Shown here: positions 99 to 58,115 of the stretch, piece by piece
Layout of the letters: each line of letters starts with the position of its first letter
Numbering within the stretch: the first letter of the stretch is position 1
Assembly: GCA_963790825.1 (NCBI GenBank)
Contig: CAWBPM010000002.1
Location: 231,159 to 295,158 of the forward strand
Length of the DNA: 64,000 nucleotides
Source of the DNA: Candidatus Levyibacteriota bacterium
Lineage (GTDB): Bacteria; Patescibacteriota; Microgenomatia; Levybacterales; UBA12049
Direction: 5' to 3'
Program-made: the position numbers and the translations under genes
Notes under the pieces: generated by a model
What the model was told of the DNA's origin: nothing
The model's database searches: none
Seen by the model: only the letters and a program-made list of their open reading frames with translations

Positions 99-695
99 CT
101 ATGGAGTAGGTTCTACCTGTGTTCCTCCAAAGTTCGCTGTGAACGACACTTTTTCTCCTGGAATAAGAGAAGTAACATTTGCTGGCACTGATGCGTTCAT
201 CGCACAGTATGCATAGTCTCCTGGTTGCAAGGTTGGCAAGGTTTCACTTCCCCATGCTGATAATGCATAATCAGCATTGGTTACAGGAATAGTTCCAACA
301 GAACTTGGTAAAGTTGTACCATAATCATAGCAGTTAAAACCTACAGACAAGTTATTGTTTAGATCATTATCTGAAGGATCGTATGTAGGCGTCTTAAGCG
401 TGACTATAGTACTCAATGGTATATCAGCTCCACTATTGTTGAATAACCAAAACGTAATGTTTTTGTTAAATCCAGGAAAAACATTATTAATGATACCACT
501 AAAATCTTGCGTTGATAACCATCCGTCTACCGGAGTACCATTATTGTCCTGAGCAATCTCTAAACCTGCACTTTCGGCTGCAAAGGTAATTCCTGATCCT
601 GCTGCAGTTGCGGTCAACTGGGCGTAGGTAACTCCTGCAAATAAAGAAATGGTTGCTACTATTGAAATTCCACTCATTAAAATTTTTCTATTCAT
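99..695 (-). CDS. Secreted/cell-surface protein of unknown function with an N-terminal signal anchor
   Basis: N-terminus is M-NRK followed by a hydrophobic stretch then AQLTATAAGSG, which resembles TasA/camelysin-type SipW-cognate signal peptides. Ser/Thr/Asn-rich mature part. Strong GGGGGTG SD upstream. Confidence 0.5.
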   Translation of the reverse strand: MNRKILMSGISIVATISLFAGVTYAQLTATAAGSGITFAAESAGLEIAQDNNGTPVDGWLSTQDFSGIINNVFPGFNKNITFWLFNNSGADIPLSTIVTLKTPTYDPSDNDLNNNLSVGFNCYDYGTTLPSSVGTIPVTNADYALSAWGSETLPTLQPGDYAYCAMNASVPANVTSLIPGEKVSFTANFGGTQVEPTP

Positions 696-1029: not shown

Positions 1030-1290
1030 GTGTATACTACTATTACTATGAATTATCTCTGGGACTACAACAAAAACGACTTGGAGAAAACAGAAGAAGG
1101 ACGAATACGTATTCTAGAGCGTAAAATTAATTACGGTCCGGATAAAGGGGAGAAAATAGCTTTGTCGGAAGTGAGAAAATACTGGGAGAAACTTCAATTA
1201 TTTCCACTACAGAGACGACTCTTCGAGTTGCTATTATGGGGACATTACATTTCCTCAGCAAAGAACAACAAAGCGTCTTTAACGAAATAG
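1030..1290 (+). CDS. Small partner protein (putative antitoxin/adaptor) overlapped with the downstream AbiEii-like gene; paralog of 2023..2226
   Basis: Shares an NYG-D-GEK...KYW-KL motif with ORF 2023..2226. Its 3' end overlaps the start of the next gene out of frame (ATG inside a TGG codon) in both copies. Real start may be the internal MNYLWDY. Confidence 0.4.
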   Translation: MYTTITMNYLWDYNKNDLEKTEEGRIRILERKINYGPDKGEKIALSEVRKYWEKLQLFPLQRRLFELLLWGHYISSAKNNKASLTK

Positions 1291-1892
1291 GCAAAAACAG
1301 CTATATCCGTAAGCAATTTTATTTAACGGGTGGAACTGCTTTAAGTGCTGTGTATTTACAGCATAGATACTCGGACGATTTGGATTTCTTTTCTGAGAGT
1401 AAATTCGATAACCAAATTATTTTTGCTTTTTTACAAGAGTTGAGTAAAAAACTCGCCTTTACCTTTCAACCCCGTTTTTTAGAAGTAACTTATATTTTTG
1501 ATCTCCTTTTTTCCAATAAATCTCCTCTAAAAATTGACTTTTCCTACTACCCATATAAAAGAATAGAAAAGAGTAAAGTAATTGAAGGACTGGAAATTGA
1601 TAGCTTAACTGATATTGCAATTAATAAGTTGTTTACTGTCCAGCAAAGAAATGATGTAAAGGATTTCGTAGATTTATACTACTTATTGCAGGATTTTGCT
1701 ATTTGGGATTTAATACACGGAGTGCAAAAGAAATTTAATATCAGCATAGAGCCATTACTTTTGGCTGCCGATTTTCTTAAAATCGATGATTTCACCTATC
1801 TTCCTCGTATGATTAAGCCGCTTACTTTAACTGAACTGAAAAATTTTTACCATCAGAAGGCACAAGATTTAGGAAAAGAATCTGTTAGGTGA
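1236..1892 (+). CDS. AbiEii/AbiGii-family nucleotidyltransferase (DUF1814, type IV TA toxin-like)
   Basis: The YLTGGTALSAVYLQHRYSDDLDFF motif matches the GGTAL...HR(F/Y)SxDLDF signature of the AbiEii NTase family. Confidence 0.65.
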   Translation: MGTLHFLSKEQQSVFNEIGKNSYIRKQFYLTGGTALSAVYLQHRYSDDLDFFSESKFDNQIIFAFLQELSKKLAFTFQPRFLEVTYIFDLLFSNKSPLKIDFSYYPYKRIEKSKVIEGLEIDSLTDIAINKLFTVQQRNDVKDFVDLYYLLQDFAIWDLIHGVQKKFNISIEPLLLAADFLKIDDFTYLPRMIKPLTLTELKNFYHQKAQDLGKESVR

Positions 1893-2022
1893 ACCACTTT
1901 TCATTCCATCTCATTCTTCGGATGAAACCCGACAAAAGATAAGAGATAGTTATTGGTTATTGGTGGTTTTGGACGCTCGGAACCTCACAAAGGACAGGTA
2001 AAATCTGGTATAATACAGATGT

Positions 2023-2226
2023 ATGTATAACTGGAATACGGATACCACCGAGCTTAAAAAGAACCCGGAAAAATACGCGATCTGGAAGATGGAGCAGATG
2101 ATTAACTACGGCTTGGATGGGGAAAAGCTGGACACAAAATTGGTAATAAAATATTGGGATAAACTAAGAATCGATCAGCAAAAACGTGACTTACTGGCAT
2201 TCCTAATATGGCAAAAACGATCTTAA
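2023..2226 (+). CDS. Small partner protein, second copy (paralog of 1030..1290)
   Basis: NYGLDGEKL...KYWDKL motif. The 3' end overlaps the next gene in the same configuration as the first copy. Confidence 0.4.
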   Translation: MYNWNTDTTELKKNPEKYAIWKMEQMINYGLDGEKLDTKLVIKYWDKLRIDQQKRDLLAFLIWQKRS

Positions 2227-2867
2227 CAAAGAAGCAGCAGCAACTTCTTCACGCGCTTTCTGAAGAAAACCTTATTAAGCAGCATTTTTATCTTTCCGGC
2301 GGCACAGCACTTGCGCAGTATTATCTGCAGCATAGATTATCAGAAGATTTGGATTTTTTCTCTCCGGAAGAAATTGATCCTAATTCCTTTCAGGTTATTA
2401 TGAAACGGATTAAGCAAAAAATTCAGTTTGAGAAAGTAACATATGAAAATTCATTTAACAGAAATCTTTTTTTTCTCCATTTTCCAGGTGAGGTTATAAA
2501 AACAGAATTTACCTATTATCCATTTGAACAAATAGAACAACCTAAAGAAATAGAAGGAATACATGTTGACAGCCTCATCGATATAGCAGTTAATAAAACT
2601 AATACAATTTTTACCAATCCTCGAACCCGTGATTTTATTGATTTATACCTCATTTTACAAAAAGAAAAGTGGATTTTTCCTGACATGATTAAAAAATCAA
2701 GGATAAAATTTGATATGTATGTTGACCCTCTACAAATAGCGCAACAACTTTTGTTTGTAACAAAAATACAAGATTATCCGCGTATGCTTATAGCTTTCGA
2801 TTTTAAGGCATGCGAAAAGTTTTGGCTGCAAGTTGCTAGAAGCCTCAAAAAAGATATTTTAAAATAA
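2208..2867 (+). CDS. AbiEii/AbiGii-family nucleotidyltransferase, second copy
   Basis: YLSGGTALAQYYLQHRLSEDLDFF motif. Roughly 40% identical to 1236..1892 over its length. Confidence 0.65.
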   Translation: MAKTILTKKQQQLLHALSEENLIKQHFYLSGGTALAQYYLQHRLSEDLDFFSPEEIDPNSFQVIMKRIKQKIQFEKVTYENSFNRNLFFLHFPGEVIKTEFTYYPFEQIEQPKEIEGIHVDSLIDIAVNKTNTIFTNPRTRDFIDLYLILQKEKWIFPDMIKKSRIKFDMYVDPLQIAQQLLFVTKIQDYPRMLIAFDFKACEKFWLQVARSLKKDILK

Positions 2868-2924
2868 AACGTATCTGTTTTTTTCGAAAAAGAAGGTTGA
2901 CAAAGCGCATTTATATACTATAGA

Positions 2925-3356
2925 ATGCGACCCACTATGTCTGAGGTAATTAAATGGGGGAGAGAATCTTTTACTATCAATAAAAATGCTGGCGGAGGCA
3001 GAGAGTTTGCTTGGGATGGCAGCCCCTTTAGATTACACAAATTACCTGCGTATGCAAGAGTATATCCGCAAGAATCAAAGCCTAATTGGCGTGGTCATGA
3101 GGGTAGGACCCTTTTTATTTATCAGGAACCTCCGGTCCATATAACTGGAGAACAAGGATATATGGCTCCAAAACCCTACGAAGCAAATAGTGAATATTTA
3201 CTAGGTGTAGGAGCCCAAATCTATCCAACTGGTGAATTTTATCCTCCGGAACTTCCGCAAATATTAACACACTTACAAAATGACTGGGGTTGGGATATTG
3301 ACCCACAACTGCGCACTCGTTTTGGTATTTCGGATCCGAAGCAGGAAGGAGAATAA
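2925..3356 (+). CDS. Hypothetical protein
   Basis: ORF only; no recognisable motif. TTGACA and a -10-like box lie immediately upstream, so the mRNA may be leaderless. Confidence 0.35.
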   Translation: MRPTMSEVIKWGRESFTINKNAGGGREFAWDGSPFRLHKLPAYARVYPQESKPNWRGHEGRTLFIYQEPPVHITGEQGYMAPKPYEANSEYLLGVGAQIYPTGEFYPPELPQILTHLQNDWGWDIDPQLRTRFGISDPKQEGE

Positions 3357-3359
3357 AAC

Positions 3360-3803
3360 TCAGGAGTTTACTTTTTTTATCGTCCACCAGGTGAAGTAAC
3401 CAAGTAGCGAAAGAACACCTGCAAGCAGTGTGCAAATAATTGCCAGAATGAGAAATCCAATCAGTGTATTTATTATGGAGGCAGACTTAGGAAAATGGGT
3501 TAAAGTAACTGCCATTAAACCCATAACATAAAAAAACCCGAATAAATTTCCACTGCGAAAACTAATTTCTTGTGTCTTCATAAACATTCCGAAAATGAGA
3601 CAAACAATGCTGCTTATTACCAGATCAACCCAAAACTCGCCTAATATAACCGTAAAGCTCAAAATACCCAGAACCAGGCCGAGAAGGATTGGGATGTATA
3701 TCTCTTTTCGTTGCATCAAAATAATAGTATATAAATTTGTTTTAATTTGCAAATTCTTTTCTTCCGTACTTTTAGTCGTAAAAGTACCAAAAGCTTTTTG
3801 CAA
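3360..3803 (-). CDS. Small integral membrane protein (about 4 TM), unknown function
   Basis: Four hydrophobic helices in the translation. Confidence 0.45.
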   Translation of the reverse strand: MQKAFGTFTTKSTEEKNLQIKTNLYTIILMQRKEIYIPILLGLVLGILSFTVILGEFWVDLVISSIVCLIFGMFMKTQEISFRSGNLFGFFYVMGLMAVTLTHFPKSASIINTLIGFLILAIICTLLAGVLSLLGYFTWWTIKKVNS

Positions 3804-3836
3804 GTGAAAGGTCGCTAAATTCTTAGTTCGCTAATC

Positions 3837-3891
3837 GGGGGAAATGCGCGCGCCCTCCAACATCCACCTGCGGTGGAGTTGGCGATCCCCC
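3837..3891. other. GC-rich nested hairpin element in an AT-rich divergent intergenic region (ggggga...ccaac-at-ccacc-tgc-ggtgg-a-gttgg...tccccc)
   Basis: Nested inverted repeats read directly. Strong local GC spike. No adjacent U-tract, so it is not a classic terminator. Confidence 0.3.
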
Positions 3892-4015
3892 TGATAACTG
3901 CACTAAGAATTTTTAACGCGCTGCTTTCAATTGCAATTAGGCGAAGAAAGGATAACGTGCTTTGTTTCAATGCTCACAGATGACGAAAATTAGAAAGGAT
4001 AAAATTACGCGCTGG

Positions 4016-4058
4016 GTTCAGTTGTAGGAATACTACAAAATGAGAGGAATTTTCTACT
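4016..4058. repeat. 43-nt direct repeat, copy 1 (gttcagttgtaggaatactacaaaatgagaggaattttctact); 40/43 identical to 5668..5710
   Basis: Direct comparison of the two copies. It is followed at 4059..4082 by a second motif (ggtacgctttgatggcatcctgac) that recurs at 10861..10888. Confidence 0.6.
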
Positions 4059-4126
4059 GGTACGCTTTGATGGCATCCTGACAAAAGGAAAGTGGTAGTA
4101 CCCAAGCCTAAAATATATGCTATACT

Positions 4127-4426
4127 TTGGTAGTTATGAAACAGTCTGTTCTTGAAGAAATAAAAACAAAAGCTCTTCCGATACTTAAACGTGCAGGTGT
4201 TAAAAAAGCGGCGCTTTTCGGCTCTTATGTTCGTGGAGAAGAAACAGAAAAAAGCGATGTGGATATCTTGGTAGATCTCCCATCTAACGCAACGCTTATA
4301 GACTTGGTTGGTATAAAACAAGATCTTGAGGAAAAATTACATAAAAAAGTTGATGTAGTTACCTATAATGGCATCTGTCACCTAATCAAAGATTCTGTTC
4401 TTAAAAGTCAATATCCTGTCTTATGA
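4127..4426 (+). CDS. MNT-type minimal nucleotidyltransferase (antitoxin of a HepT/MNT module)
   Basis: GSYVRGEETEKSDVDILVDL is the GS-x9-DxD Pol-beta NTase motif. About 100 aa. Stop overlaps the next start (ATGA). Confidence 0.8.
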   Translation: MVVMKQSVLEEIKTKALPILKRAGVKKAALFGSYVRGEETEKSDVDILVDLPSNATLIDLVGIKQDLEEKLHKKVDVVTYNGICHLIKDSVLKSQYPVL

Positions 4427-4770
4427 AAAAAGATCCAGAGGTTTATCTTACTCATATCTTAGATTCAATAAATCTACTCGAAAGATATTTACAAGGAGTT
4501 ACAGAAAGCCAATTTTATTCATCTGAAGAAAAACAAGATCTTGCCGTAAGAAGAATTGAAGTAATCGGTGAGGCAACAAAAAATATCCCTGATTTTTTTA
4601 AAGAAAATTACCCTGCTATTCCCTGGAAGAGAATGGCAGGCATGAGAGATGTTTTAATTCATCAATACGATGATATAGATATGAAAATAGTTTGGAAAAC
4701 CATAACACAATTTGTCCCTGAATTGAAAAAGCAAATTGGAACACTCTTAAAAAATTCATCCGGTACCTGA
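4423..4770 (+). CDS. HepT-like HEPN toxin (DUF86)
   Basis: R-x4-HxY motif (RDVLIHQY) near the C-terminus. 4-nt overlap with the MNT gene. Confidence 0.8.
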   Translation: MKKDPEVYLTHILDSINLLERYLQGVTESQFYSSEEKQDLAVRRIEVIGEATKNIPDFFKENYPAIPWKRMAGMRDVLIHQYDDIDMKIVWKTITQFVPELKKQIGTLLKNSSGT

Positions 4771-17386: not shown

Positions 17387-17458
17387 TGAGCCTGAGAGGG
17401 ATCGAACCTCCAACCAGTTCCTTAAGAGGGAACTGCTCTACCATTGAGCTACAGGCCC
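17387..17458 (-). tRNA. tRNA-Lys (anticodon CTT)
   Basis: Manual cloverleaf: GGGCCUG acceptor, GCTCAATGGTAGAGC D-arm, anticodon loop CUCUUAA, GGTTCGATCC T-arm. Confidence 0.8.
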
Positions 17459-35645: not shown

Positions 35646-35719
35646 TACGCCTGGAGGGACTTGAACCCCCGACCCCTTCGTCCGAAGCGAAGTGCTCTAA
35701 TCCGCTGAGCTACAGGCGC
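35646..35719 (-). tRNA. tRNA-Arg (anticodon TCG)
   Basis: Manual cloverleaf: GCGCCUG acceptor with G1-U72 wobble, GCTCAGCGGATTAGAGC D-arm, anticodon loop CUUCGGA, GGGTTCAAGTCCC T-arm. Confidence 0.8.
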
Positions 35720-58042: not shown

Positions 58043-58115
58043 GGTGGAAGACGGGTGCTGCCCCCGCGACCTCCAGGTCCACAACCTGGCGTTCTACTGT
58101 TGAACTACATCCACC
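58043..58115 (-). other. GC-rich tRNA-shaped element with tRNA-His-like features (GTG anticodon, extra 5' G pairing with C73) but non-canonical D- and T-loops
   Basis: Manual fold on the minus strand: 7/4/5/5-bp stems of correct spacing, anticodon loop UUGUGGA. D-loop is AACAGUA and T-loop is GGCAGCA, which lack the GG and TTCRA signatures. Confidence 0.3.

Follow-up and report, generated by a model that had tools for sequence, protein, structure and literature searches.

Candidate toxin-antitoxin operons that pair a small Patescibacteria protein family with short AbiEii/DUF1814 nucleotidyltransferases

The window analyzed here is a 64-kb stretch of contig CAWBPM010000002.1 of Candidatus Levyibacteriota bacterium, which was compared with more than 200 related loci. 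According to the list of open reading frames (ORFs) and the sequence itself, it carries two adjacent cassettes in the same orientation on the forward strand, each composed of a small ORF followed by an overlapping gene for a short nucleotidyltransferase (NTase). Each cassette is probably a two-gene toxin-antitoxin (TA) operon, in which a minimal AbiEii/DUF1814 NTase of the MenT-like and JHP933-like type would be the toxin and the 67-80-amino acid (aa) product of the small ORF, predicted to fold into three helices, would be the cognate antitoxin and bind the NTase directly. The toxin family and the logic of the operon are already known, and short antitoxins of DUF1814 proteins have precedent. 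What is new is an unnamed partner family found throughout the candidate phyla radiation (CPR), its possible tie to DUF6922, and a conserved geometry in which the start of the second gene is embedded in the first.

By analogy with MenT1, MenT3, MenT4 and AbiEii, the NTase would block translation by adding nucleotides to the 3′ ends of tRNAs. The small protein would neutralize it by occluding the active site and/or by making the NTase auto-phosphorylate its invariant Ser, which precedes the first catalytic Asp by two residues; MenA1 acts in this way on MenT1 T39 (PMC10435456, PMC11375011). A -10 or extended -10 promoter that lies only a few nucleotides (nt) before the ATG of the small ORF would drive transcription and yield a leaderless mRNA, and since the NTase start is embedded in conserved Leu-Trp codons, synthesis of the NTase would probably be coupled to, and not exceed, that of the antitoxin. 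As the window copies are devoid of DNA-binding domains, their regulation would be post-transcriptional. In a sister lineage, an HTH_11 domain is fused to the small protein. Toxicity, neutralization, target, phosphorylation, coupling and leaderless transcription were all inferred from sequence and from these analogies.

Linkage and co-divergence of the two genes

Linkage was scored by searching stop-to-stop translations of all fetched loci with hidden Markov models (HMMs) of both proteins. On the small-ORF side, 80 GTDB loci were sampled and 78 were informative: an intact NTase gene lay directly downstream in 55/78, NTase fragments only were present in 13/78, and no NTase was present in 10/78, in which the intact small ORF sat between unrelated genes. 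The NTase-side sample consisted of 80 metagenome loci, the closest 80 of at least 559 matches, and here a small ORF lay directly upstream of 74 of the 75 intact NTases with enough upstream sequence. The lone exception is a divergent second NTase with a DUF6922 gene in the place of the small ORF. Co-occurrence of the small ORF and a short NTase, which the initial annotation had named as a point to check, was therefore found in other genomes from either side. In total, 23/78 small ORFs have a degraded or absent NTase and toxin orphans are almost nil; common orphan small ORFs and nearly no orphan NTases are the pattern expected of a harmful NTase that needs its partner, as in a TA pair. In locus L070 (3001..4631) an opposite-strand gene for a 341-aa protein (3265..4290) interrupts the NTase, with the small ORF on one side and what is left of the NTase C-terminus (4329..4631) on the other, a case of a toxin inactivated by an insertion.

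The same asymmetry counts against a helper subunit and against reversed roles. Were the NTase a benign modifying enzyme engaged in tRNA or RNA repair or in nucleotidylation of small molecules, with the small protein as its obligate subunit, specificity factor or chaperone, tight linkage and co-divergence would be expected as for any obligate heterocomplex; the nearest solved relative, JHP933, comes without shown toxicity, and not every DUF1814 protein is linked to an antitoxin (PMC7450476). A helper should however decay with its enzyme, whereas 23/78 small ORFs outlive the NTase and only 1/75 NTases lacks a small ORF. The frequent NTase pseudogenes (13/78) are also ill-suited to a housekeeping enzyme, as is a distribution that is patchy, multi-copy and island-like, beside other TA pairs, and we consider a benign enzyme unlikely.

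A reversal of roles, with the small protein as the toxin and the NTase as an antitoxin acting by nucleotidylation as in MNT-HEPN type VII systems, is more improbable by far. NTase antitoxins do exist, an MNT/HepT pair lies at 4127..4770 of the window, and the small protein is without a known antitoxin fold. Gene order and toxin family nevertheless match those of AbiE and MenAT, whose toxin is the DUF1814 NTase (PMC7450476). Small ORFs often remain intact where the NTase is lost (10 with none and 13 with fragments among the 78), a state that a toxic small protein should make lethal. A helix-turn-helix (HTH) domain was moreover gained by the small protein in the sister lineage, a trait typical of antitoxins.

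The two proteins of a pair diverge together. Identity matrices of the small ORF and the NTase correlated with Mantel r = 0.48 over 126 distinct pairs (the maximum of 999 permutations was 0.17), although shared phylogeny accounts for part of this correlation.

The nucleotidyltransferases, the small proteins and their relatives

Both large ORFs belong to the AbiEii/DUF1814 family, as the initial annotation had proposed. They exceeded the gathering threshold of Pfam PF08843 (61.0 and 60.2 bits, cut-off 22.5), aligning over positions 12-171 (copy 1) and 8-176 (copy 2) of the 238-position model, and each matched 20-24 PADLOC AbiEii models. Motif I reads GGTAL...HRYSDDLDF in copy 1 and GGTAL...HRLSEDLDF in copy 2. 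In an alignment of 20 diverse homologues, G31, G32, T33, R43, S45, D47, K98, K130, D142 and D145 were invariant and D49 was present in at least 90%, which gives the motif I loop the form S-x-D-x-D. The C-terminal motifs III and IV are intact, the former as DIA(V/I)NK with K130 invariant and the latter as KDFVDLY in copy 1 and RDFIDLY in copy 2. Judged from these motifs, the catalytic residues are intact in both copies.

In MenT1, residues T39, D41, K137 and D152 have been mutated and assayed, and phosphorylation requires T39, D41 and K137 (PMC11375011). The conserved residues of the 20-homologue alignment correspond to this set of four. The auto-phosphorylation site is a Ser or Thr and the catalytic residue an Asp in both MenT1 (T39/D41) and MenT3 (S78/D80) (PMC11375011, PMC7450476), and the spacing of the S-x-D-x-D loop equals that of these two proteins. 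S45 and D47 would thus be the equivalents of MenT1 T39/D41 and MenT3 S78/D80, as judged from the motif and not from an alignment; MenT1 could not be aligned directly to the window NTases by HMMER. The sole PDB sequence match of the NTase family profile was Helicobacter pylori JHP933 (4O8S/4OK0; HMMER, E 4e-8), which was also nearest in a fold search made with the model of database protein P0073, at a low TM score of 0.24-0.29. JHP933 resembles the window NTases as a DUF1814 NTase with two lobes, a comparable length (232 aa) and an RFSEDLDF motif; it differs in that no partner antitoxin or function has been shown for it, and identity is about 20%.

The small ORFs matched no Pfam, NCBIfam or PHROGs family in library scans. 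A match to the PADLOC model PDC-S31 (E 0.015) was set aside as chance because it was seen in only 1 of 34 members of the small family. The initial annotation had asked whether these ORFs are conserved outside the source genome, and they are: small ORF 2 has 51 homologues at 44-100% identity, the family profile matched 267 representatives of clusters at 50% identity, and relatives detected with one peptide pattern occur in 150 GTDB species genomes. Nearly all of these are Patescibacteria/CPR, among them Levy-, Roizman-, Davies-, Magasanik-, Uhr-, Peri- and Saccharibacteria, and a few metagenome-assembled genomes are labeled Omnitrophota, Elusimicrobia or Bacteroidetes. Variability by codon position was 0.38/0.27/0.58, highest at the third position, and within the stretch that overlaps the NTase the three positions were equally constrained (0.28/0.29/0.26). 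From these patterns, the small ORF is a real conserved gene.

Small ORF 2, modeled by AlphaFold2 (AF2) with the family alignment, gave a compact three-helix structure with a mean pLDDT of 81. Foldseek comparison of this model with the PDB returned nothing with E < 6, and the small-family profile searched against all PDB chains at E ≤ 10 returned chance kinase matches only. AbiEi Pfam models matched 0/34 family members, even at E ≤ 10. By sequence and by predicted structure, then, the small protein is neither AbiEi nor MenA1, an outcome that fits the "minimal or different antitoxin family" suggested when AbiEi and COG5340 were first named as families to compare.

The closest functional parallel is MenA1-MenT1 (Rv0078B-Rv0078A) of Mycobacterium tuberculosis. 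There, the 68-aa MenA1 neutralizes a short DUF1814 toxin, MenT1, by sequestration and induced auto-phosphorylation (PMC10435456, PMC11375011), a precedent for the control of a DUF1814 toxin by a short antitoxin other than AbiEi. Shared with the window cassettes are a short upstream partner without a DNA-binding domain, a short DUF1814 NTase and an S/T-x-D-x-D active-site loop. Unlike in that system, the host phylum here is Patescibacteria, and the small proteins have no sequence similarity to MenA1 in a PDB search that should include the MenAT1 complex entry 8AN5; MenA1 consists of a long and a short helix in a V shape, whereas the model obtained here is a compact three-helix one.

The cassettes also resemble AbiEi-AbiEii of Streptococcus agalactiae and Lactococcus and MenA3/4-MenT3/4 in that the toxin belongs to PF08843, the operon is bicistronic with the antitoxin gene first, and the conserved Ser phospho-acceptor neighbors the catalytic Asp of the NTase, as in AbiEii and MenT3/4. 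AbiEi likewise sequesters AbiEii and induces its auto-phosphorylation (bioRxiv 10.64898/2026.01.19.700257). AbiEi and COG5340 proteins are, however, large, with a winged HTH and a C-terminal domain, unlike the 67-80-aa partner here, and AbiEii and MenT3/4 are longer than the NTases of the window (about 219 aa). In general layout the cassettes have the type II/VII architecture of protein TA operons: two small genes side by side on one strand, that of the candidate antitoxin ahead, whose frames overlap or abut.

AbiE was first defined as an abortive infection (Abi) system (PMC7450476), and the module might be primarily an anti-phage system of that kind, like lactococcal AbiE; this reading overlaps the TA operon that we favor. 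The many PADLOC AbiEii models matched by the NTases and the position of the module beside other TA or defense-type pairs speak for it. No IMG/VR contig carries the module, no PHROGs matches were obtained, and the first 8 kb showed neither restriction-modification nor CRISPR genes beside it. We rate a primarily anti-phage role as improbable, slightly more so than a benign enzyme.

Small proteins of the DUF6922 family (PF21956), 76-122 aa long, recur directly upstream of short AbiEii NTases (132-223 aa), usually with an overlap. This arrangement was found for 7 of the 8 DUF6922 genes examined. In four loci (L063, L072, L120 and L122) the DUF6922-NTase pair adjoins the module studied here, and the pairing recurs for three further DUF6922 proteins encoded on long contigs; the gene that follows DUF6922 in L001 codes instead for a 232-aa protein without a family. 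A literature search for DUF6922 returned nothing. The two small families share a size class of about 75-80 aa, an upstream overlapping position, hosts among the same Patescibacteria, and an order of motifs (aromatic-W-x-D...L, then YxI...(N/K)xG, then L.(I/L)D/S.K). The partner NTases of DUF6922, unlike those of the small family, belong to other sub-branches (E 1e-16 to 1e-21 with the NTase HMM, against < 1e-60 within the family).

None of the 34 small-family members passed the PF21956 gathering threshold of 27 bits; the best-scoring relative, P0150, scored 15.4 bits (E 0.013) over the homologous stretch, below that cut-off. An hhalign comparison of 173 with 120 sequences gave a score of 23.2 (P 0.002), with a probability of only 13%. 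Shuffling of columns gave null scores of 11.5 ± 2.3 with a maximum of 22.7, so that 0/200 reached 23.2. It is plausible, and in our estimate somewhat favored, that the small family is a remote relative of DUF6922.

A wider synthesis can be put forward only tentatively, and we hold it to be doubtful as a whole: the small ORF would represent a Patescibacteria-wide antitoxin family with a three-helix fold of its own, forming with DUF6922 (itself more than 800 proteins) a superfamily that would serve as minimal partners of minimal JHP933-like AbiEii NTases, neutralizing them without a kinase motif through induced Ser auto-phosphorylation, and encoded on leaderless mRNAs that fix the start of the toxin gene within conserved Leu-Trp codons of the antitoxin. 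If true, antitoxin-induced auto-phosphorylation of NTases would have arisen on at least three unrelated scaffolds (AbiEi, MenA1 and the small family), and both Pfam DUF6922 and the orphan structure JHP933 would gain a function. DUF1814/AbiEii/MenT toxins are widespread, and how unrelated antitoxins (AbiEi, COG4861, MenA1) control them is being actively studied; the cassettes would add a further undescribed family of small partners, abundant in the reduced genomes of Patescibacteria (CPR), and a testable functional hypothesis for DUF6922. The module would also be among the commoner TA-type modules in organisms with few recognized defense or stress systems.

Gene junction, promoters and the two lineages

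The initial annotation had described two copies of the same arrangement, and all four ORFs were found at the coordinates it gave (Table 1), as were the motifs that it quoted (INYG.D.GEK...KYW.KL in the small ORFs and GGTAL...HR.S.DLDF in the NTases). It had also placed the NTase ATG inside a Trp codon of the small ORF, which is nearly exact: the ATG is formed by the last base of a Leu or Ile codon and the TG of the Trp codon, as tta-tgg in one copy and ata-tgg in the other. Across the family, small ORF and NTase overlap in 50 of 57 intact pairs, by 19 nt in 16 pairs and by 22 nt in 8, with a range of 1 to 73 nt; in the remaining 7/57 the genes are apart, by 1-18 nt in six pairs and by 318 nt in one. 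The start has the form xxA-TGG on a conserved C-terminal LLW of the small protein in 37/57 pairs.

Most loci have the NTase in frame -1 with respect to the small ORF. Three relative frames nevertheless occur among the pairs, same-frame pairs (L007/L044) are parted by a stop codon and a spacer, and the NTase has a conserved N-terminus, MAKTILT, and its own ATG. An obligatory frameshift or split gene is ruled out by this variety of frame and junction. One gene broken by a sequencing or assembly error, or translated into a fused protein by a programmed -1 frameshift, can therefore hardly be entertained, even though most NTases overlap the small ORF in the -1 frame and the database contains a "fusion" protein of 282 aa, P0073: the two-ORF arrangement occurs in more than 130 independent assemblies, with overlaps of 1-73 nt or gaps of 1-18 nt with a stop between, and the NTase starts at a conserved ATG and N-terminus of its own. 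P0073 was considered as a natural fusion and rejected. In locus L094 (335..1183), read with table 11, the small ORF stops at a TGA (547) and the NTase is frameshifted, so that P0073 is an artifact of TGA read as Trp, and the low-confidence residues 76-111 of its model are the out-of-frame segment. An in-frame fusion in related genomes, which the initial annotation had raised as a sign of a single frameshifted gene, was found only in this artifact. Three other proteins (P0098, P0125 and P0140), in which the N-terminal part of the small ORF is joined to C-terminal NTase sequence without the GGT...DLD motif, look like deletion products.

Expression signals were examined by position. A generic sigma-70 scan found promoters no more frequently than in shuffled sequences and misses promoters without a -35 element; a positional analysis of -10 hexamers was used in its place. 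In 45/56 loci there is a TATAAT-like hexamer whose end lies 5-10 nt ahead of the ATG of the small ORF (exactly 6 nt in 24), and TGn precedes the hexamer in 34/56; the background was 11/42 long ORFs of the window with a -10-like hexamer at the same distance from the ATG. This suggests leaderless transcripts, with a promoter for each cassette. Because 11/42 long ORFs share the arrangement, leaderless expression appears common in the source genome, and Shine-Dalgarno (SD)-like motifs (GGAG, GAGG or AGGA) precede the first ATG in only 2/42 long ORFs, which suggests that SD sequences are seldom employed in the source organism (39% GC) and that its mRNAs are often leaderless. An SD-like motif precedes the NTase in 3/57 pairs. 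Absence of an SD sequence before the NTase had been considered as evidence of coupling and was dropped, since such motifs are almost absent anyway (2/42). Translational coupling was inferred only from the conserved embedded NTase start; together with a probably leaderless transcript, an embedded start would be a compact natural design that ties toxin synthesis to antitoxin synthesis.

The promoter also bears on the start of small ORF 1. The mechanical ORF call begins at a GTG that abuts the TATACT hexamer and would thus fall upstream of the transcript, and the homologues of small ORF 1 all start at a Met equivalent to ATG 1048. The start is most likely ATG 1048, giving 80 aa.

The two cassettes are related from afar. 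Their small ORFs are 40% identical (E 1e-10) and their NTases 35% (E 3e-42), so the "about 40% divergence" of the initial annotation has to be corrected: 35-40% is the identity, and the copies are about 60-65% divergent. For both genes, the nearest relatives of copy 1 are the modules of L090 and L091 (69% for the small domain, 51% for the NTase), above the values between copy 1 and copy 2 in the same identity matrix (37% and 34%). A simple local duplication does not fit, as copy 1 is nearer to L090/L091 than to copy 2; the cassettes would be either ancient paralogues or separate acquisitions at a single TA-rich spot. A recent tandem duplication is ruled out by the same kinship. No third copy was found elsewhere in the 64-kb window, and tandem or neighboring modules also occur in L035 and L100.

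Protein P0150 (139 aa) carries an N-terminal HTH_11 domain (E 3e-8) fused to the small domain. Such a fusion is characteristic of antitoxins that regulate themselves. In the HTH-fused relatives (L090-L093) the overlap is 52 nt, near the 55 nt of copy 1, and the C-terminal tail of the copy 1 small ORF is a conserved coding feature common to P0150; an HTH remnant was looked for upstream of copy 1 and none was found. A perfect palindrome, TAGTTTACTGTAAACTA, covers the -10 region in L090-L093. Two copies of a motif based on TAGTTTAC lie upstream of the HTH_11-fused small protein (L090 1859..1924, also in L091-L093), and the second copy, the palindrome TAGTTTACTGTAAACTA, is a candidate operator for autorepression. 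A divergent gene for a 44-aa HTH fragment is present on the opposite strand in L090-L093.

Several points weigh against the TA operon as the reading of the cassettes. Neither its sequence nor its predicted fold makes the small protein resemble a known antitoxin. Homology to proteins that lie beyond direct sequence search is the source of the proposed toxicity, binding and target, and the sole PDB relative, JHP933, is of unknown function. The window copies are without a DNA-binding domain, and no operator-like repeats were found in either window promoter. The lack of an SD sequence before the NTase says nothing about coupling where SD-like motifs are so rare. No relatives of the module were found on viral (IMG/VR) contigs and there were no PHROGs matches, so a phage-defense role gains no support from that side. 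The more distant NTases, outside the closest 80 of at least 559, may have other partners, and the Mantel correlation owes part of its size to phylogeny.

Coordinates and neighboring genes

Table 1. Positions of the cassette features in the window and of DUF6922-NTase pairs in related loci
Feature	Coordinates	Strand	Basis or remark
Candidate -10 hexamer TATACT, module 1	1033..1038	+	Sequence; 9 nt 5′ of ATG 1048
Small ORF 1, candidate antitoxin, 80 aa, of a divergent lineage with C-terminal tail	1048..1290	+	Family HMM, E 2e-23
Mechanical ORF call for small ORF 1, GTG start, 86 aa	1030..1290	+	
NTase 1, AbiEii/DUF1814, 218 aa, candidate toxin	1236..1892	+	PF08843, E 2.1e-16, 61.0 bits; PADLOC AbiEii
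Module 1 dual-coding overlap, 55 nt, NTase ATG across Leu-Trp codons	1236..1290	+	Sequence
Extended -10 element TGgTATAAT, module 2	2006..2014	+	Sequence, and position conserved across loci; end 8 nt 5′ of ATG 2023
Small ORF 2, candidate antitoxin, 67 aa, of the mainstream lineage	2023..2226	+	Homologues and AF2 model
NTase 2, AbiEii/DUF1814, 219 aa, candidate toxin	2208..2867	+	PF08843, E 3.8e-16, 60.2 bits; PADLOC AbiEii
Module 2 dual-coding overlap, 19 nt, commonest geometry of the family	2208..2226	+	Sequence
DUF6922-NTase pair, L063	3861..4797		
DUF6922-NTase pair, L072	3959..4587		
DUF6922-NTase pair, L120	861..1741		
DUF6922-NTase pair, L122	2344..3229		
DUF6922-NTase pair, L176	2001..2848		
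DUF6922-NTase pair, L178	2001..2866		

Further TA-type genes lie nearby. An MNT-type NTase gene (4127..4426, forward strand; NTP_transf_2, E 3e-17) overlaps by 4 nt the next gene, for a HepT-like HEPN RNase (4423..4770, forward strand; E 2e-29), and by these domain matches the pair is a canonical type VII TA system 1.3 kb downstream of the cassettes. In locus L005 (1548..3901; Magasanikbacteria), a small ORF and a frameshifted NTase directly follow two pairs of HEPN and NTP_transf_2 genes. These neighborhoods suggest that the first 5 kb of the window form a small TA cluster and that L005 is another TA island.

Between the cassettes and the type VII pair, the region 2897..3356 (forward strand) holds the best sigma-70-like promoter of the region (TTGACA-18-TAGAAT, 11/12, ending at 2926), from which ATG 2937 would open the frame of a 139-aa protein (MSEVIKWGRE...) on a near-leaderless transcript; the protein had no Pfam, NCBIfam, PADLOC or PHROGs match. 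Upstream, a 198-aa ORF on the reverse strand (99..695), divergent from cassette 1, has a segment resembling a signal peptide (MNRKILMSGISIVATISLFAGVTYAQ) at its N-terminus. At the gathering threshold, Rfam models matched only three tRNA genes in the window, all on the reverse strand (17387..17458, 35646..35719 and 58043..58114).

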